From: Escherichia coli
Lineage (GTDB): Bacteria; Pseudomonadota; Gammaproteobacteria; Enterobacterales; Enterobacteriaceae
Strand: one strand, 5' to 3'
DNA length: 64,000 nucleotides
Assembly: GCF_046105845.1 (NCBI RefSeq)
Contig: NZ_CP151004.1
The notes beneath the pieces were generated by a model that ran no database searches, had not been told where the DNA came from, and saw nothing but the letters and a program-made list of their open reading frames with translations. This document shows, one piece after another, positions 23,449 to 59,875 of the stretch; position 1 is the first letter of the stretch; each line of letters begins with the position of its first letter. The position numbers were made by a program, and so were the translations under genes.

Positions 23449-23958
23449 ATGTACACTTCAGGCTATGCACATCGTTCTTCGTCGTTCTCATCCGCAGCAA
23501 GTAAAATTGCGCGTGTCTCTACGGAAAACACTACAGCCGGGCTTATCAGTGAAGTTGTCTATCGCGAAGATCAGCCCATGATGACGCAACTTCTACTGTT
23601 GCCATTGTTACAGCAACTCGGTCAGCAATCGCGCTGGCAACTCTGGTTAACACCGCAACAAAAACTGAGTCGGGAATGGGTTCAGGCATCTGGGCTACCC
23701 TTAACGAAAGTGATGCAGATTAGCCAGCTCTCCCCTTGCCACACTGTGGAGTCAATGGTTCGCGCTTTACGCACGGGCAATTACAGTGTGGTGATCGGTT
23801 GGTTGGCAGATGATTTGACTGAAGAAGAGCATGCTGAACTTGTTGATGCGGCAAATGAAGGTAACGCTATGGGGTTTATTATGCGTCCGGTAAGCGCATC
23901 CTCTCACGCAACGAGACAACTTTCCGGGCTAAAAATTCACTCTAATTTGTATCATTAA
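23449..23958 (+). CDS. sulA: SOS cell-division inhibitor SulA
   Basis: ORF trimmed to [19 protein letters not shown] (169 aa). Confidence 0.95.
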
Positions 23959-24181: not shown

Positions 24182-24313
24182 GCCAGGGGTGCTCGGCATA
24201 AGCCGAAGATATCGGTAGAGTTAATATTGAGCAGATCCCCGGTGAAGGATTTAACCGTGTTATCTCGTTGGAGATATTCATGGCGTATTTTGGATGATAA
24301 CGAGGCGCAAAAA
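24182..24313 (+). promoter_or_regulatory. ompA long 5' UTR (Hfq/MicA-targeted leader)
   Basis: Leader begins GCCAGGGGTGCTCGGCATAAGCC as I recall the ompA mRNA 5' end; about 132 nt before the ATG; the ORF-track frame 24227.. starts inside this leader. Confidence 0.65.
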
Positions 24314-25354
24314 ATGAAAAAGACAGCTATCGCGATTGCAGTGGCACTGGCTGGTTTCGCTACCGTAGCGCAGGCCGCTCCGAAAGATAACACCTGGTAC
24401 ACTGGTGCTAAACTGGGCTGGTCCCAGTACCATGACACTGGTTTCATCAACAACAATGGTCCGACCCATGAAAACCAACTGGGCGCTGGTGCTTTTGGTG
24501 GTTACCAGGTTAACCCGTATGTTGGCTTTGAAATGGGTTATGACTGGTTAGGTCGTATGCCATACAAAGGCAGCGTTGAAAACGGTGCATATAAAGCTCA
24601 GGGCGTTCAGCTGACCGCTAAACTGGGTTACCCAATCACTGACGATCTGGACGTATACACTCGTCTGGGTGGTATGGTATGGCGTGCAGACACTAAATCC
24701 AACTTTGATGGTAAAAACCACGACACCGGCGTTTCTCCGGTCTTCGCTGGCGGTGTTGAGTACGCGATCACTCCTGAAATCGCTACCCGTCTGGAATACC
24801 AGTGGACCAACAACATCGGTGACGCACACACCATCGGTACTCGTCCGGACAACGGCATGCTGAGCCTGGGTGTTTCCTACCGTTTCGGTCAGGGCGAAGC
24901 AGCTCCAGTAGTTGCTCCGGCTCCAGCTCCGGCACCGGAAGTACAGACCAAGCACTTCACTCTGAAGTCTGACGTTCTGTTCACCTTCAACAAAGCAACC
25001 CTGAAACCGGAAGGTCAGGCTGCTCTGGATCAGCTGTACAGCCAGCTGAGCAACCTGGATCCGAAAGACGGTTCCGTAGTTGTTCTGGGTTACACCGACC
25101 GCATCGGTTCTGACGCTTACAACCAGGGTCTGTCCGAGCGCCGTGCTCAGTCTGTTGTTGATTACCTGATCTCTAAAGGTATCCCGGCAGACAAAATCTC
25201 CGCACGTGGCATGGGCGAATCCAACCCGGTTACTGGCAACACCTGTGACAACGTGAAACAGCGTGCTGCACTGATCGACTGCCTGGCTCCGGATCGTCGC
25301 GTAGAGATCGAAGTTAAAGGTATCAAAGACGTTGTAACTCAGCCGCAGGCTTAA
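24314..25354 (+). CDS. ompA: Outer membrane protein A
   Basis: [21 protein letters not shown] signal peptide, 346 aa, APAPAPAP hinge, C-terminal OmpA peptidoglycan-binding domain. Confidence 0.97.
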
Positions 25355-25369: not shown

Positions 25370-25398
25370 AAAAACCCCGCTGCTGCGGGGTTTTTTTT
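25370..25398. terminator. Rho-independent terminator of ompA (shared with convergent matP)
   Basis: AAAAACCCCGC-tgct-GCGGGG followed by TTTTTTTT; A-tract on the other side. Confidence 0.8.
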
Positions 25399-25430: not shown

Positions 25431-25883
25431 TTATTCCTTACCCAGCAATGCCTGCAGATCCTGCTTCAAAGAAGACATTTTATTCGCGTATTTCTCTTTG
25501 TTTTCCGCATCTTCAATCAGCTGAACAATCGTTTCAGAAAGCGTTTTACCGCGACGCTGCGCAAGACCAGCCAGACGTTGCCAGACAATAAATTCCAGAT
25601 CGATCGATTTTTTGCGCGTATGCTGGTGTTCCGCATTAAAATGGCGCTTCCGTCTGGCCCGAATGGTTTGCTTCATGCGATTGACCAGTTCCGGATTCAT
25701 ATGCTTGTCAATCCAGCCATTTACCAGCACGGGTTCATTTTCCAGCGAGAGCAACACATCGACGGCTTCCTGGGCGGCACTGGCTTCTATGTAACGGGTG
25801 ATTAACTCCCCTTCGCGATGCTTCTTCACCAGATACTTCCATTTCCAACCGCTTTCAAGATTTTCAAGTTGTTGATATTTCAT
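25431..25883 (-). CDS. matP: Macrodomain Ter protein MatP
   Basis: 150-aa [29 protein letters not shown]; recognised as MatP (YcbG). Confidence 0.95.
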
Positions 25884-26068: not shown

Positions 26069-27829
26069 TTGACCATTACGAAACTTGCATGGCGTGACCT
26101 GGTTCCTGATACCGATAGCTATCAGGAAATATTTGCTCAGCCACATTTGATTGACGAAAACGATCCTTTATTCAGTGATACTCAACAGCGACTGCAATTT
26201 GCGCTGGAGCAGTTGCTGCATACGCGAGCATCCTCCTCTTTTATGCTGGCGAAAGCCCCGGAAGAGTCTGAGTATCTGAATCTTATTGCCGATGCCGCGC
26301 GTACGCTACAAAGCGATGCAGGCCAACTTGTGGGCGGTCACTATGAGGTTTCCGGGCACACCATCCGCTTACGTAACGCAGTGAGTGCAGATGATAATTT
26401 TGCGACTTTAACGCAAGTTGTCGCTGCCGACTGGGTAGAAGCGGAACAACTCTTTGGCTGCCTGCGCCAGTTTAATGGCGACATTACCCTGCAGCCAGGT
26501 CTGGTGCATCAGGCAAATGGCGGTATTCTCATCATCTCTTTGCGTACACTGCTGGCGCAACCTCTGCTGTGGATGCGGCTGAAAAATATCGTTAACCGCG
26601 AGCGTTTTGACTGGGTTGCGTTTGATGAGTCGCGCCCTCTCCCCGTCACTGTGCCTTCGATGCCATTGAAGCTGAAAGTCATTCTGGTAGGCGAACGCGA
26701 ATCATTGGCTGATTTCCAGGAGATGGAACCAGAGCTTTCAGAGCAGGCTATTTATAGCGAATTTGAAGATACTCTGCAGATTGTCGATGCGGAGTCAGTA
26801 AGCCAGTGGTGTCGCTGGGTGACATTGACCGCCAGACATAATCACTTACCTGCACCAGGAGCGGATGCCTGGCCGGTACTTATCCGCGAAGCAGCCCGCT
26901 ACACCGGTGAACAAGAAACACTTCCGCTTAGCCCGCAGTGGATCCTCCGCCAGTGTAAAGAGGTCGCCTCCCTGTGCGATGGCGACACCTTCTCCGCCGA
27001 GCAGCTAAACTTAATGCTGCAGCAGCGTGAATGGCGTGAAGGTTTCCTCGCTGAACGCATGCAGGATGAGATCCTTCAGGAGCAAATCCTGATTGAAACC
27101 GAAGGCGAACGCATCGGGCAAATTAACGCCCTTTCGGTCATTGAATTTCCGGGTCATCCACGCGCTTTTGGCGAACCTTCTCGCATTAGCTGCGTTGTGC
27201 ATATTGGCGATGGTGAATTCACCGACATCGAACGCAAAGCGGAGCTTGGCGGCAATATCCATGCGAAAGGGATGATGATCATGCAGGCGTTCCTGATGTC
27301 GGAACTACAGCTTGAGCAACAGATCCCCTTCTCAGCATCGCTGACATTTGAGCAGTCATACAGTGAAGTGGATGGCGATAGTGCCTCGATGGCTGAACTC
27401 TGCGCCCTGATAAGCGCCCTCGCCGATGTGCCGGTGAATCAGAGTATCGCTATCACAGGTTCAGTCGATCAGTTCGGTCGTGCCCAGCCGGTCGGTGGTT
27501 TAAATGAGAAAATCGAAGGCTTCTTTGCTATTTGCCAGCAACGTGAGTTAACCGGGAAACAAGGTGTCATTATCCCCACTGCTAACATTCGCCATTTAAG
27601 TCTTCACAGTGAACTGGTGAAAGCGGTAGAAGAAGGCAAATTCACCATCTGGGCAGTAGACGATGTGACTGACGCACTGCCGTTATTATTAAATCTGGTG
27701 TGGGATGGCGAAGGCCAAACGACGCTGATGCAAACCATCCAGGAACGTATCGCGCAAGCATCGCAACAGGAAGGACGTCACCGTTTTCCATGGCCATTAC
27801 GTTGGCTGAACTGGTTTATTCCGAACTGA
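26069..27829 (+). CDS. ycbZ: Lon-like protease homologue YcbZ (no recognisable AAA+ Walker A motif)
   Basis: 586-aa ORF; Lon S16 protease domain with Ser in DGDSAS and Lys in GGLNEKIEG; recognised as YcbZ. Confidence 0.93.
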
Positions 27830-36767: not shown

Positions 36768-37877
36768 GTGGCGACATTAACCCGGCTTTTTATTCATCCT
36801 GTTAAATCGATGCGCGGCATTGGTCTTACACATGCTCTGGCAGATGTCAGTGGTCTGGCCTTCGATCGCATCTTTATGATCACGGAACCTGACGGTACGT
36901 TTATTACCGCTCGCCAGTTTCCGCAAATGGTACGGTTTACTCCTTCACCTGTGCATGATGGCTTGCATCTCACCGCACCAGATGGCAGTAGCGCATATGT
37001 TCGTTTTGCTGATTTCGCCACACAAGACGCACCAACCGAAGTTTGGGGCACACATTTTACCGCGCGAATTGCGCCAGACGCGATCAACAAATGGCTAAGT
37101 GGATATTTCTCCCGCGAAGTGCAGTTGCGCTGGGTGGGGCCACAAATGACGCGGCGCGTGAAACGCCACAACACTGTACCCCTGTCATTTGCTGATGGCT
37201 ATCCTTACCTTCTTGCTAACGAAGCCTCGTTACGTGATCTCCAACAACGTTGTCCGGCCAGTGTAAAAATGGAGCAATTCCGCCCTAATCTGGTGGTTTC
37301 CGGCGCGTCAGCCTGGGAAGAAGATAGCTGGAAAGTGATTCGTATTGGTGATGTGGTGTTTGATGTGGTTAAACCTTGTAGCCGCTGTATTTTCACCACC
37401 GTCAGCCCAGAAAAAGGGCAAAAACATCCGGCAGGCGAACCATTAAAAACATTGCAATCTTTCCGCACTGCCCAGGATAACGGCGATGTCGATTTTGGCC
37501 AGAATTTAATTGCCCGTAATAGCGGCGTAATTCGCGTTGGCGATGAGGTGGAAATTCTGGCAACGGCTCCGGCTAAAATTTACGGCGCAGCCGCCGCTGA
37601 TGATACCGTCAACATCACGCAACAACCGGACGCAAATGTAGATATTGACTGGCAGGGACAGGCATTTCGTGGAAATAACCAACAGGTGTTGCTGGAGCAA
37701 TTAGAAAATCAGGGAATTCGTATCCCTTATTCTTGCCGCGCGGGCATTTGTGGAAGTTGCCGTGTTCAGCTTTTAGAAGGCGAAGTCACGCCGCTGAAAA
37801 AATCAGCAATGGGCGATGATGGCACCATTCTTTGCTGTAGCTGTGTACCGAAGACTGCGCTTAAGCTGACGCGTTAG
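36768..37877 (+). CDS. ycbX: MOSC-domain protein YcbX with C-terminal 2Fe-2S ferredoxin domain
   Basis: 369 aa, GTG start; C-terminal CRAGICGSC...CC cysteine motif. Confidence 0.93.
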
Positions 37878-38416
37878 ACTGCCTGTTCGAGGCTGAAGCT
37901 GTCAACATTAACCTGCGGTTTCAGCCTGTCGTTCATGATTTTGATGGCGTCGCCCAGCTGCATCGCGCGACCCGCAATAACAACGCAGGGTTGTGCCAGC
38001 AGGCATAATGCGGCATTTTCGCCAGATTCAACGACCAGCAAATTGACTTGCTCGTGAGTGTCGCTCAACCAAACGCAGGCCGTATCGCCTGGCATGGGCA
38101 CCCACATTTCACCATGGGAAACAAAATGCCAGCTTTTCGGCATTTGCGGTTTGAGATAACGAATTGCTACCAGTGCATTCAGCACTAACTCAGCTTTCTG
38201 TTCTTTGGATAACGGCAGGTCACGGCATTTTTCCTCAAAAGAAAAATAGAGCGCGGCATCATCAACACAAAAACCGGAGGGATTAAAGGCATCTGGCGTG
38301 AGCATTTTACGAGCAAAACGCGAGCGAAATAACATACCATTGGCTAAATCGAGCATCATTCGATCGTGCTCTTCATCATAATACCAGCGCCAGTTATCGT
38401 CAGGTTTAATTCGCAT
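37874..38416 (-). CDS. zapC: Cell division protein ZapC
   Basis: 180-aa [27 protein letters not shown]; recognised as ZapC (YcbW). Confidence 0.93.
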
Positions 38417-41490: not shown

Positions 41491-45152
<3,662 letters not shown>

Positions 45153-45176
45153 CTCGCTCTCTTAACTGAAGACGGC

Positions 45177-45878
45177 TTACGATTTACAGTTGAGTTGCGG
45201 CGTTTCCGCCCCGTAGTCATTGATGGTTCGGTACGTTACGCTACTGTTTTGAGCACCCTTTGGCAGAGGGAATTGGTATTTATCAAAGGGGGAAATCATT
45301 TGATTTTTAACTACTTTTCCACCTATTTTCAGGTCTGTCAGGGTAATGAAATAAGGTGTTGGGTTACTGACCGTAACCATGTCAGCTGACGAAGTGCAAC
45401 GCAGTTTCGCCGGAGCCTCGGCTAAGGGATATGCTAAACCTTTTGGTCGCCAAAAAAGTTTGATGACGCTTTGTGTGGCAATCTTCAGGGTATTGCCTTC
45501 TTCCCGCTTCGTTGTTGAAGGGACTGCCCGTACGCTGGTGAAGAAAAGAGTTTCTCTGTCTTTCGCCAACGGCGCACCAATATACATAATGCGTAACAGA
45601 TTCTCATTTGCCGGATTCAGCACAAATAGCGGTGGTGTAATAATAAAGTCCGCTGATTTTTTATTATCTGGTGTCATCACCCATGACTGAATAAGATAAG
45701 GAACATCCGGACTGGTGTTACGTACACCCAGTGAAATTTGCTCTTCACCTTCCGAATAAACAAGACGTGTTGCTGCAAGTCCAACCCCGCCTTTACCTGC
45801 CGCCCATGTGGACGAACAGCTGAGTAATATTGCCGTTAAACTTACGGTCACAATTCCCTTTGTTATGCAAGTTTTCAT
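45177..45878 (-). CDS. elfD: Fimbrial periplasmic chaperone ElfD (YcbR)
   Basis: 233-aa ORF, PapD-like chaperone. Confidence 0.93.
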   Translation of the reverse strand: MKTCITKGIVTVSLTAILLSCSSTWAAGKGGVGLAATRLVYSEGEEQISLGVRNTSPDVPYLIQSWVMTPDNKKSADFIITPPLFVLNPANENLLRIMYIGAPLAKDRETLFFTSVRAVPSTTKREEGNTLKIATQSVIKLFWRPKGLAYPLAEAPAKLRCTSSADMVTVSNPTPYFITLTDLKIGGKVVKNQMISPFDKYQFPLPKGAQNSSVTYRTINDYGAETPQLNCKS

Positions 45879-45960
45879 AAATAGTCACTCTTAAAAAATA
45901 TGGATATCCCCTCCAGAACACTGGAGGGGGACTAATTAATAAAACAATTAATGTGTTCTA

Positions 45961-46500
45961 TTAATAATAGTTAATATGGAAGTTTGTTACCGCATTAACA
46001 TTACCTGAAGTGGCTTTACCCGTAGCGATATAATCAACTTTAAAGGTCAACGTCTGATCTCCATTCTGCAACAAGATGTTCCCGGTTTCTGTGTCTGGCG
46101 TAATGGTCGTTGTGCCATCATTCATGTACATTTGCAGGGCCACGTTTGTAGCAGCATCAGTAGAGGCCTGATTAGCAAACGCTGTAATCTGCGTAGTATC
46201 CGCAGTGCCATTAAAGGTGAACGTTGCATTTTTTGTTACGGTAATATCACAATCTTTTAATTCAATTGGCACATCAGTTTGCACTCCAGAAACCTGGCCA
46301 TTACTTTGCAACTTCGTAGCACTAACATCTGGCAAAGTCACCACGGAATCTTTCGTCACAGCTACCAGCGAACAAGCTGGAGCAATGACTTTACCATTAA
46401 ATGTTACTTTGCCATCCGTGATAGCATTATCATCAGCCGCCATAGCACTGGACGTTGCACATACCACAGTTATAAACGCCGTCAATACACTTTTTTTCAT
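45961..46500 (-). CDS. elfA: Major fimbrial subunit ElfA (YcbQ)
   Basis: ORF trimmed to MKKSVLTAFITVVCATSSAMA (179 aa); AT-rich upstream region. Confidence 0.9.
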   Translation of the reverse strand: MKKSVLTAFITVVCATSSAMAADDNAITDGKVTFNGKVIAPACSLVAVTKDSVVTLPDVSATKLQSNGQVSGVQTDVPIELKDCDITVTKNATFTFNGTADTTQITAFANQASTDAATNVALQMYMNDGTTTITPDTETGNILLQNGDQTLTFKVDYIATGKATSGNVNAVTNFHINYY

Positions 46501-46855: not shown

Positions 46856-47431
46856 ATGCGTGTCATCACCCTGGCGGGTAGTCCTCGCTTTCCTTCTCGC
46901 TCCAGCTCCTTGCTGGAATATGCGCGGGAAAAACTGAATGGCCTGGATGTAGAGGTTTATCACTGGAATCTGCAAAACTTTGCCCCGGAAGATCTGCTTT
47001 ATGCTCGTTTCGATAGTCCGGCACTCAAGACCTTCACCGAACAGCTGCAACAGGCTGATGGACTGATAGTCGCTACACCTGTGTATAAAGCCGCCTATTC
47101 CGGTGCGCTGAAAACCCTGCTCGACCTGCTGCCAGAACGCGCTCTGCAAGGCAAAGTGGTGCTGCCGTTGGCGACGGGCGGCACGGTGGCTCATCTTTTG
47201 GCGGTCGATTACGCCCTTAAACCGGTTTTAAGCGCACTGAAAGCTCAGGAGATCCTGCACGGCGTGTTTGCCGATGACTCTCAGGTGATTGATTACCACC
47301 ACAAACCCCAGTTCACGCCAAATCTGCAAACCCGTCTTGATACCGCGCTGGAAACTTTCTGGCAGGCATTGCACCGTCGGGATGTTCAGGTTCCTGACCT
47401 TCTGTCTCTGCGAGGTAATGCCCATGCGTAA
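46856..47431 (+). CDS. ssuE: NAD(P)H-dependent FMN reductase SsuE
   Basis: 191-aa ORF MRVITLAGSPRFPSRSS; first gene of ssuEADCB. Confidence 0.95.
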   Translation: MRVITLAGSPRFPSRSSSLLEYAREKLNGLDVEVYHWNLQNFAPEDLLYARFDSPALKTFTEQLQQADGLIVATPVYKAAYSGALKTLLDLLPERALQGKVVLPLATGGTVAHLLAVDYALKPVLSALKAQEILHGVFADDSQVIDYHHKPQFTPNLQTRLDTALETFWQALHRRDVQVPDLLSLRGNAHA

Positions 47432-48383
47432 GATCATTAAACTGGCGCTGGCGGGCTTACTTAGCGTCTCTACACTTGCTGTTGCCGCGGAGTCTTCGCC
47501 AGAGGCGTTACGGATTGGCTATCAGAAAAGCAACATTAGTTCGGTGCTGGCGAAAAATTACCAAATGCTGGAAAAACGCTATCCGCAAACAAAAATCTCC
47601 TGGGTGGAGTTCCCCGCTGGCCCACAGATGCTGGAGGCGTTAAACGTCGGCAGTATCGATCTCGGCAGTACCGGGGATATTCCGCCAATCTTTGCCCAGG
47701 CTGCCGGGGCTGATTTGGTATACGTGGGCGTCGAGCCGCCGAAGCCCAAAGCCGAAGTGATTCTGGTGGCAGAAAACAGCCCGATCAAAACCGTAGCCGA
47801 TCTTAAAGGTCACAAAGTTGCCTTTCAGAAAGGTTCCAGTTCGCACAATCTTTTACTACGCGCACTACGCCAGGCCGGGCTTAAGTTTACCGATATACAA
47901 CCCACTTACCTGACACCCGCTGATGCCCGCGCCGCGTTCCAGCAAGCTAACGTCGACGCATGGGCTATCTGGGATCCCTACTACTCCGCTGCATTATTAC
48001 AGGGCGGCGTGCGGGTGCTAAAAGACGGCACCGATCTCAATCAGACCGGATCGTTTTATCTGGCTGCCCGTCCGTATGCAGAAAAAAACGGCGCATTTAT
48101 TCAGGGTGTACTGGCAACCTTTAGTGAGGCCGATGCGTTAACCCGCAGCCAGCGCGAGCAAAGCATCGCCTTATTGGCAAAAACGATGGGCTTACCGGCC
48201 CCGGTGATTGCCTCGTATCTGGATCATCGCCCTCCCACCACCATCAAACCGGTTAACGCCGAAGTTGCCGCCTTACAGCAGCAAACGGCAGATCTGTTTT
48301 ATGAAAACCGTCTGGTGCCGAAAAAAGTCGATATCCGCCAGCGTATCTGGCAGCCCACTCAACTGGAAGGAAAACAATTATGA
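47424..48383 (+). CDS. ssuA: Aliphatic sulfonate ABC transporter periplasmic binding protein SsuA
   Basis: ORF trimmed to [21 protein letters not shown] (319 aa); 8-nt overlap with ssuE. Confidence 0.93.
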
Positions 48384-57384: not shown

Positions 57385-58458
57385 ATGATGAAGCGCAATA
57401 TTCTGGCAGTGATCGTCCCTGCTCTGTTAGTAGCAGGTACTGCAAACGCTGCAGAAATCTATAACAAAGATGGCAACAAAGTAGATCTGTACGGTAAAGC
57501 TGTCGGTCTGCATTATTTTTCTAAAGACAATGGTGTAAACAGTTACGGCGGAAACGGCGACAAAACTTATGCCCGTCTTGGTTTTAAAGGGGAAACACAA
57601 ATCAATTCCGATCTGACCGGCTACGGTCAGTGGGAATATAACTTCCAGGGTAACAACTCTGAAGGCGCTGATGCCCAGAAAGGTAACAAAACTCGTCTGG
57701 CATTCGCAGGTCTGAAATTCGCTGATGCGGGTTCTATCGACTACGGTCGTAACTACGGTGTGGTTTACGACGCACTGGGTTACACCGATATGCTGCCTGA
57801 GTTTGGCGGTGACACGGCATACAGCGATGACTTCTTCGTTGGTCGTGTAGGCGGCGTTGCTACCTATCGTAACTCCAACTTCTTCGGTCTGGTTGACGGC
57901 CTGAACTTTGCCGTTCAGTACTTGGGCAAAAACGAACGTGCTGGTATTCCTGAGCGTTCCAACGGCGACGGCGTCGGTGGCTCTATCAGCTACGAATTCG
58001 AAGGCTTTGGTATCGTAGGTGCTTACGGTGCAGCAGACCGTACCGACGCCCAGGAAGCCGAATTCCGCGGTCAGGGTAAAAAAGCTGAACAGTGGGCAAC
58101 TGGTCTGAAGTATGACGCGAACAACATCTACCTGGCAGCGAACTACGGTGAAACCCGTAACGCTACGCCAATTGAAGGCGGCTTCGCCAACAAAACGCAA
58201 GACGTTCTGTTAGTTGCGCAATACCAGTTCGATTTCGGTCTGCGTCCGTCCATCGCTTACACCAAATCTAAAGCGAAAGACGTAGAAGGTATCGGTGATG
58301 TTGATCTGGTGAATTACTTTGAAGTGGGCGCAACCTACTACTTCAACAAAAACATGTCCACCTATGTTGACTACATCATCAACCAGATCGATTCTGACAA
58401 CAAACTGGGCGTAGGTTCTGACGACACCGTTGCTGTGGGTATCGTTTACCAGTTCTAA
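57385..58458 (+). CDS. ompF: Outer membrane porin OmpF (divergent loop allele)
   Basis: [22 protein letters not shown] signal peptide, C-terminal VGIVYQF; 357 aa versus 362 aa recalled for K-12. Confidence 0.95.
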
Positions 58459-59848: not shown

Positions 59849-59875
59849 AAGCCCGCTGAAAAGCGGGCTTTTTTA
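59849..59875. terminator. Bidirectional terminator between convergent aspC and ycbL
   Basis: AAGCCCGC-tgaaaa-GCGGGCTT followed by TTTT. Confidence 0.8.

Follow-up and report, generated by a model that had tools for sequence, protein, structure and literature searches.

An intact ompA gene of the natural allele class (IV, beta) in a non-K-12 Escherichia coli

OmpA allele classes and their known phenotypes

The natural variants of OmpA in E. coli were sorted by Liao et al. (2017) into allele classes defined from ten variable positions (PMC5413513). Class (IV, beta), cloned from isolate 111, carries N, SVE, V93, SNFDGKN, Y129, H, M161, A175, T203, and G251 (Table 5 of PMC5413513), and pattern IV was recorded in 7.7% of 78 environmental isolates (PMC5413513). 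Liao et al. (2022) equated (IV, beta) with the "D" N-terminal pattern, "D3," of Nielsen et al. (2020) and placed it mostly in phylogroup F (PMC9560509); according to Nielsen et al. (2020), the D pattern also occurs in B2 and D isolates.

Several of these variable positions bear on recognition at the cell surface. In PMC6499177, which cites Morona et al., OmpA positions 25, 70, 110, and 154 are listed as affecting phage-receptor function in K-12. Experiments with MG1655 expressing ECOR OmpA variants are described in PMC12032242; natural loop-3 variants decided infection by narrow-host-range Gp38 phages, and Gp38 phages with a broad host range infected cells with any of the eight variants. The nanobody Nb01 binds the NVYG motif of OmpA on live cells and contacts the entire motif in a crystal structure; NFDG variants escape its detection, and in a survey of 85,680 genomes the OmpA-short form with NFDG in place of NVYG was the commonest variant undetected by Nb01 (PMC12259851). 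For conjugation, the defective OmpA change is G154D, in loop 4 (PMC10516633).

Other phenotypes have been compared with alleles placed in MG1655 delta-ompA. In this background, attachment to corn stover was altered with (IV, beta) relative to (I, alpha) (P = 0.0058; PMC5413513), and N versus T at position 203 was correlated with hydrophobicity and biofilm formation (PMC9560509). None of the four surface properties measured (elastase sensitivity, surface charge, biofilm formation, and hydrophobicity) correlated significantly with the N-terminal loop variants in the work of Liao et al. (2022; PMC9560509); for this reason, the loop-3 change may have only small effects on some phenotypes.

The ompA gene and its differences from K-12

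In the window, that is, the whole 64,000-nt stretch of E. coli DNA analyzed here, ompA forms an uninterrupted ORF of 1041 nt (24314-25354, +), the translation of which is an OmpA precursor of 346 amino acids with a mature protein beginning APKDNT. The NCBIfam equivalog NF008071 ("porin OmpA") matched with 672.8 bits (cut-off, 277), aligning residues 1-346 with profile positions 1-358, and the Pfam domains PF01389 (residues 23-195, 266.6 bits) and PF00691 (residues 222-317, 84.2 bits) were both detected. The protein has the two-domain architecture of an N-terminal OmpA-like transmembrane barrel and a C-terminal OmpA/MotB peptidoglycan-associating domain, and it is 98-99% identical to the solved barrel and C-terminal domain chains. 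The gene order, sulA (23449-23958, +), ompA, matP (25431-25883, -), and ycbZ (26069-27829, +), is that of MG1655, so that ompA occupies its orthologous chromosomal slot between sulA and matP. Five further ORFs overlap the gene, four of them on the minus strand (93, 66, 135, and 76 amino acids) and one in a different plus-strand frame (64 amino acids); given the strong support for ompA, they were put down to chance. The pN/pS of ompA relative to MG1655 (0.107) is consistent with purifying selection on a conserved functional gene. We concluded with high confidence that this is a normal, intact chromosomal ompA of a wild-type, non-K-12 E. coli, belonging to the catalogued class (IV, beta). The product would be expected to work as any OmpA does, with an eight-stranded outer-membrane barrel, four surface loops, and a periplasmic peptidoglycan-associating domain.

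We compared the gene base by base with MG1655 ompA (b0957, NC_000913 1019013-1020053). The two differ at 16 of 1041 bases (98.46% identity), with no insertions or deletions. At the protein level, 342 of 346 residues are identical, and exactly four are changed: I93V, V110F, Y111D, and N203T in mature numbering, corresponding to codons 114 (ATC to GTA), 131 (GTT to TTT), 132 (TAT to GAT), and 224 (AAC to ACC). Within these codons, the differing bases are at 24653, 24655, 24704, 24707, and 24984; beside the four nonsynonymous changes there are 11 synonymous differences (12 in the count used for pN/pS). The preliminary description, which had reported a few substitutions relative to K-12 OmpA, was accurate: its window peptides occur in the translation exactly as quoted, the K-12 sequence it gave agrees with that of MG1655 b0957, and the alignment with K-12 OmpA that it proposed gave four differences, rather than identity, with no substitution that it had missed.

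Two of the four changes were put in context by an alignment of 40 Enterobacteriaceae OmpA homologues. Position 93 interchanges among V, I, and L, with V as the majority residue, and I93V is a conservative change within the membrane. The N/T alternation at position 203 recurs in the homologues of Cronobacter, Kosakonia, Pantoea, and Erwinia.

The sequences flanking the gene are close to those of K-12. The 5' leader was delimited from the transcription start of K-12 ompA, which is presumed to hold here as well. Its sole difference from K-12 is a C run shortened by 1 nt near 24237, the ribosome-binding region being the same; in an even sample of 40 complete genomes, about 9 have this exact 134-nt sequence. 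Besides the C run, the region upstream of ompA shows two substitutions relative to K-12. Downstream, three changes were found, all of them outside a terminator-like hairpin that lies between ompA and the convergent matP; its form suggests that it may act as an intrinsic terminator. A regulatory explanation was rejected, as these were the only differences from K-12 around the gene and the C-run polymorphism is common. The features of the locus are listed in table 1.

Table 1. Features of the ompA locus, with positions in the window
Feature	Position	Strand	Basis
ompA 5' untranslated leader, 132 nt (133 nt in K-12)	24182..24313	+	Start presumed from the homologous K-12 leader (GCCAGGGGTGC...)
ompA CDS (346 codons and stop); allele (IV, beta), protein WP_001314606.1	24314..25354	+	ORF and translation, profiles, comparison with MG1655
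Signal peptide, 21 residues	24314..24376	+	Same as K-12; cleavage site according to PMC9560509
Eight-stranded beta-barrel domain, mature residues 1-171	24377..24889	+	PF01389 at residues 23-195; 98-99% identical to 1BXW, 1QJP, and 9FZC; AF2
Codon 114, GTA, V93 (K-12 ATC, I93), in strand beta5 near its periplasmic end	24653..24655	+	Comparison with K-12; AF2 strand 112-129
Loop 3 variable motif SNFDGKN, mature residues 108-114 (K-12 SNVYGKN)	24698..24718	+	Translation; pattern IV of PMC5413513
Codons 131-132, TTT GAT, F110 and D111 (K-12 GTT TAT, V110 and Y111), tip of the loop-3 hairpin	24704..24709	+	Comparison with K-12; AF2
Periplasmic OmpA-like (peptidoglycan-associating) C-terminal domain core	24977..25264	+	PF00691 at residues 222-317; high identity to 2MQE and 4ERH
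Codon 224, ACC, T203 (K-12 AAC, N203), start of the C-terminal domain	24983..24985	+	Comparison with MG1655
Putative intrinsic terminator hairpin CCCCGC-TGCT-GCGGGG followed by a T run	25375..25398	+	Read from the sequence; identical to K-12

Allele class, frequency, and strain background

The comparison with known ompA allele classes that had also been suggested in the preliminary description led to (IV, beta) of Liao et al. (2017), which the window protein matches throughout. For the N-terminal pattern IV, residue 25 is N, residues 66-68 are SVE, residues 108-114 are SNFDGKN, and loop 4 contains GDAHT, the His of which is residue 151 by our count and is listed as 149 by Liao et al. For the C-terminal pattern beta, A175, T203, and G251 are present, and the transmembrane positions of the exemplar, V93, Y129, and M161, are also found. 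The allele is therefore an already known, catalogued natural variant, not a new one. Its protein is identical to RefSeq WP_001314606.1 ("MULTISPECIES: porin OmpA [Escherichia]"), which occurs on at least 1000 public contigs and is annotated in the complete genomes of ETEC1738, Z1323HEC0462, 104, and C4, which are pig, human, chicken, and cow isolates.

Among 5,426 complete E. coli genomes, ompA is at least 99% identical to that of the window in 299 (5.5%); the gene is 95-99% identical in 3,945, a band that includes K-12 (98.46%), and 90-95% identical in 1,182, a band that probably represents the class with a long loop 3. DNA identical to the window ompA was found in none of the 5,426, the best matches being 3-7 synonymous sites away. 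When a 62-nt segment covering loop 3 was used as the query, only 4 of the 5,426 genomes matched exactly, with a few hundred off by one base. We rejected the idea that the loop-3 variant itself is rare, as a linked synonymous site, D116 (GAC/GAT), sets the window apart from most pattern-IV alleles. Because this site skews the 62-nt count, our frequency of ~5% rests on the whole-gene band of at least 99% identity and on an evenly sampled listing.

A non-K-12 background with distinct outer-membrane receptor alleles had been proposed in the preliminary description, and this proposal proved sound, mainly on evidence from the rest of the window. Over its full length, the window lines up collinearly with MG1655 980180-1044363 (reverse complement), with an identity of 97.4-98.0%. 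Among the 57 K-12 genes compared, rmf alone has identical DNA; leaving ompA aside, 55 of 56 differ. The second receptor gene, ompF (57385-58458), is strongly divergent, with 90.3% DNA identity to K-12 and 357 instead of 362 amino acids, and the OmpF differences are grouped in discrete patches that include a six-residue deletion. The collinear divergence, the differing genes, and the OmpF patches thus support both the background and the distinct alleles, OmpA (IV, beta) and OmpF. The sulA-ompA-matP region is 98.5-99.7% identical to K-12, above the window average of 97.4%. Over 25 kb, the nearest complete genomes are 99.0-99.2% identical (a sediment isolate, C4, HYM1, PCN033, an O7:H15 ST70 strain, and others); as these are the best relatives and no identical ompA DNA was found, the lineage appears to be unrepresented among the 5,426 complete genomes. 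These relatives, together with the published association of allele and phylogroup, suggest that the strain may belong to phylogroup D or F.

C4, a close relative, has the same OmpA protein as the window. Over the 25 kb around ompA, PCN033 is 99.1% identical to the window; per 500 nt, 0-8 positions differ in the flanks and 22 in the ompA barrel region. Its ompA is the 350-amino-acid allele with a long loop 3 (WP_000750418.1) of the pattern II/III class. Because closely related backgrounds differ in ompA class, we proposed that the ompA allele moves by homologous recombination; because the PCN033 flanks are nearly identical and the ompA class is different, the allele taken by itself marks lineage only weakly. 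On this reading, the allele is old and widespread, has been swapped between lineages by homologous recombination, and did not arise by fresh mutation in the present strain. The window agrees with K-12 in having C at both of the synonymous sites 411 and 450, where T is found in those sampled pattern-IV alleles that depart from it; these K-12-like bases may reflect either a short conversion tract or ancestral polymorphism.

Loop 3, receptor specificity, and alternative explanations

The placement of the SNFDGKN patch in an external loop, as the preliminary description had it, agrees with the structural model, with the alignment, and with Nb01 (whole-cell binding and crystal structure). The AlphaFold2 (AF2) model, built on the alignment of the 40 Enterobacteriaceae homologues, is of moderate quality, with a mean pLDDT of 64.8, values mostly of 70-90 in the barrel blocks, and poor values of about 40-75 in the C-terminal domain; because this domain is poorly modeled, the model gives nothing reliable on residue 203. 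In this model, eight long strands within residues 27-190 form the barrel with its four external loops, and the strands 112-129 and 133-151 (precursor numbering) are joined by the turn N130-F131-D132, which is the tip of the beta5-beta6 hairpin. In the alignment, the loop-3 block between the invariant RAD and HDTGVSP is the part of OmpA most variable in length and sequence, and this hypervariable segment has F110 and D111 at its center. Since Nb01 contacts NVYG and fails on NFDG, residues 110-111 are both exposed and decisive for molecular recognition.

V110F and Y111D turn a hydrophobic/aromatic pair at the tip of loop 3 into an aromatic/acidic pair, which places one extra negative charge on the epitope of OmpA that is both the most variable and the most exposed. 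Such a change could alter the docking of ligands, that is, of OmpA-dependent phage adhesins, of antibodies, and possibly of colicins or TraN, and would be expected to leave the folding and structural role of OmpA unaffected. N203T falls where the periplasmic domain begins, and its position has been reported to correlate with cell-surface hydrophobicity and biofilm formation. The suggestion of the preliminary description that phages use this loop is borne out by two reports, in which residue 110 is a receptor determinant (PMC6499177) and loop-3 variants bear on the host range of Gp38 phages (PMC12032242). As for conjugation, which the preliminary description also connected with this loop, G154D is absent from the window OmpA, in which G70 and G154 are the same as in K-12, and loop 3 may plausibly take part in F/TraN-gamma mating. 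We infer that (IV, beta) may change the susceptibility of the cell to particular OmpA-dependent phages, colicins, or antibodies; this effect on receptor specificity is extrapolated from the nanobody, from the K-12 residue-110 mutants as cited second-hand, and from the Gp38 loop-3 classes. The literature searched yielded no phage, colicin, or F conjugation experiments on this strain or on the exact (IV, beta) allele.

Other explanations of the four differences were weighed against an old natural allele. We give next to no credence to sequencing or assembly errors in a K-12-like gene. The lack of identical DNA in all 5,426 complete genomes is a weak hint of error, but the nearest alleles at the DNA level are set apart from that of the window by synonymous sites only, the 64-kb window is 2-3% divergent from K-12 throughout, and the same residues appear in three independent publications (PMC5413513, PMC12259851, and Nielsen et al. 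2020). Because the identical WP_001314606.1 was annotated independently in several complete genomes and stands on at least 1000 contigs, we regard sequencing error as excluded. It is also very improbable, if slightly less so, that V110F and Y111D are a recent strain-specific phage-resistance mutation like those of laboratory K-12 OmpA receptor mutants. Such an origin would suit the two changes, each a first-position transversion, in neighboring codons at the tip of the loop, one of them at residue 110, a classic K-12 phage-resistance site (PMC6499177); however, the FD pair is combined with V93 and T203 in ~5% of complete genomes, which come from a wide range of hosts and countries, has been recorded in phylogroup F as well as in B2 and D, and is accompanied by 11 synonymous differences from K-12. 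From this frequency, phylogroup spread, and synonymous divergence, we concluded that the allele is old and does not represent a new mutation.

The two remaining explanations concern the meaning and the history of the old allele. That the variant is a neutral polymorphism with no meaningful receptor effect, a lineage marker inherited only vertically, seems unlikely to us, though far from negligible. The low pN/pS fits it, two nonsynonymous loop changes being too few for a test of positive selection, as do the absence of a significant surface-property trend among the loop variants of Liao et al. 2022 (PMC9560509) and the infection of all eight ECOR variants by broad-host-range Gp38 phages (PMC12032242). 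Against neutrality stand the abolished detection of NFDG by an NVYG-contacting nanobody (PMC12259851), the attachment difference between (IV, beta) and (I, alpha), obtained in one background (PMC5413513), and the position of loop 3 as the hypervariable hot spot of the family, such variability being what diversifying pressure on an exposed epitope usually leaves behind; PCN033, with its nearly identical flanks and other ompA class, contradicts a strictly vertical descent. Somewhat more credible, but still doubtful, is a mosaic origin of the window ompA from pattern-IV and K-12-like alleles through a short gene-conversion tract. The K-12 bases at sites 411 and 450, the four exact matches and few hundred one-base-off matches of the 62-nt loop-3 segment, the greater closeness of sulA-ompA-matP to K-12 than the window average, and a patchy density of mismatches against the relatives all point in this direction; yet two or three synonymous sites are explained equally well by ancestral polymorphism within the pattern-IV clade, and AR_0077, which carries (IV, delta), also has C at site 411.

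A tentative proposal, to which we assign a similarly modest likelihood, joins receptor specificity with this history. The NFDG tip would be kept in ~5% of E. coli by frequency-dependent selection, blocking a subset of OmpA phages (narrow-range Gp38 or K3/Ox2-type) and perhaps weakening TraN-gamma (F-type) mating-pair stabilization, and the haplotype of the window would be a fresh intragenic recombinant of pattern-IV and K-12-like alleles. If both parts were true, they would extend the well-described theme of loop-3 allele classes as determinants of receptor specificity.

Beyond its correct annotation, an ordinary catalogued allele of a well-understood gene has little significance. It does show both major outer-membrane receptors, OmpA and OmpF, as non-laboratory alleles in a wild E. 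coli, which bears on the prediction of phage host range and on the reading of conjugation and adhesion phenotypes. The allele also matters for the choice of OmpA-targeting antibodies and nanobodies, NFDG being the main escape variant of Nb01, and the shuffling of ompA alleles among closely related backgrounds makes them unsuited, on their own, to lineage assignment.

Taken together, the window OmpA can be placed among the described forms as follows. With K-12 OmpA (b0957, P0A910, allele (I, alpha)) it shares gene, locus, length, and domain architecture, as well as loops 1, 2, and 4 and residues 129, 161, 175, and 251, whereas its loop 3 has acquired an acidic residue and lost Tyr111. From (IV, beta), which is (I, alpha) plus the four changes, the protein does not differ at all. 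The (IV, delta) protein WP_001313715.1 (found, for example, in AR_0077, DS566-2, and E15) shares T203 and the N-terminal domain, with its V93 and SNFDGKN, with the window OmpA, and is set apart by A251 in place of G251; in the data set of Liao et al. (2022), (IV, delta) is confined to phylogroup B2 (PMC9560509). OmpA-ND#1, the "NFDG" OmpA-short of PMC12259851, is a short loop-3 isoform with NFDG, as is the window OmpA, and since variants are classified there by loop sequences only, it pools (IV, beta) with (IV, delta). In contrast, OmpA-long/ompA2 (patterns II and III, with the loop 3 ANVPGGASFKD) has a loop 3 longer by four residues and different loops 1 and 2, and the window OmpA belongs to the short class.

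The ompA allele in a close relative

The ompA gene of the window was compared with that of E. coli PCN033, a close relative carrying an ompA of a different class (NZ_CP006632.1, 1104434-1129445, against window positions 12000-36999). The two sequences were 99.1% identical across 25 kb, with nearly identical flanks of ompA; the PCN033 gene, however, comprises 1053 nt encoding 350 aa (WP_000750418.1), and the mismatches were concentrated in the barrel-coding portion of ompA. The combination of near-identical flanks, a different ompA class and mismatches in the barrel-coding part suggests that the ompA allele was replaced through homologous recombination between close relatives.

The same 25-kb segment (12000-36999) reached a top identity of 99.2% among the 5,426 complete RefSeq E. 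coli genomes, just 27 of which showed at least 99% identity, and the closest strains were of sediment, bovine, duck, porcine, or human origin. The source lineage of the window is absent from the 5,426 complete genomes.

DNA haplotype and leader of ompA

Identical ompA DNA was found in none of the 5,426 complete E. coli genomes, and the 62-nt loop-3 segment had an exact match in only four of them. At synonymous sites 411 and 450, the window ompA has C at each, the same as K-12, and five of the six sampled ompA alleles of pattern IV, the N-terminal class of the window allele, have T at both. The haplotype could be a mosaic within the gene, or it could retain an ancestral polymorphism. Across the collection, five ompA matches were located on plasmid-labelled records, and a single genome of the 5,426 was without any ompA match.

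Upstream of the gene, the C run of the 5' leader is shortened relative to K-12. In an even sample of 40 complete genomes, approximately 9 had the exact 134-nt leader, among them the ST131 strain EC958; therefore, this difference is a common polymorphism.

Divergence from K-12 across the window

Features of the window that differ from K-12
Feature	Window position	Strand	Difference from K-12
C run in ompA 5' leader	~24237-24240		CCCC; CCCCC in K-12
zapC	37874-38416		high divergence
elfA, elfC	42552-46500		high divergence; elfA, 10 aa changes
ssuA	47424-48383		high divergence; 12 aa changes
ompF	57385-58458	+	strongly divergent allele

The divergence of the window from K-12 is patchy, with a mosaic profile. 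In the gene-by-gene comparison, ssuA, zapC, elfA, and elfC showed only 92.1-94.3% nucleotide identity, compared with a window average of 97.4%, and sulA, sxy, hspQ, csgI, fabA, and rmf were 99.4-100% identical. At window positions 59859-59869, the K-12 alignment splits into two pieces, and the window lacks a collinear equivalent of approximately 150 bp that K-12 carries between aspC and gloC (roughly 984320-984483); thus, the two differ by a small indel or rearrangement in this intergenic region.

In pairwise comparison, the ompF DNA was 90.3% identical to that of K-12, with 21 gap positions. The encoded protein has 357 aa, compared with 362 aa in K-12, and 336 residues are identical. Its changes are grouped in a few discrete patches, which we assume to be putative surface loops and which include a 6-residue deletion (TNKFTN of K-12) and a 1-residue insertion, and the remainder of OmpF is identical to the K-12 protein.
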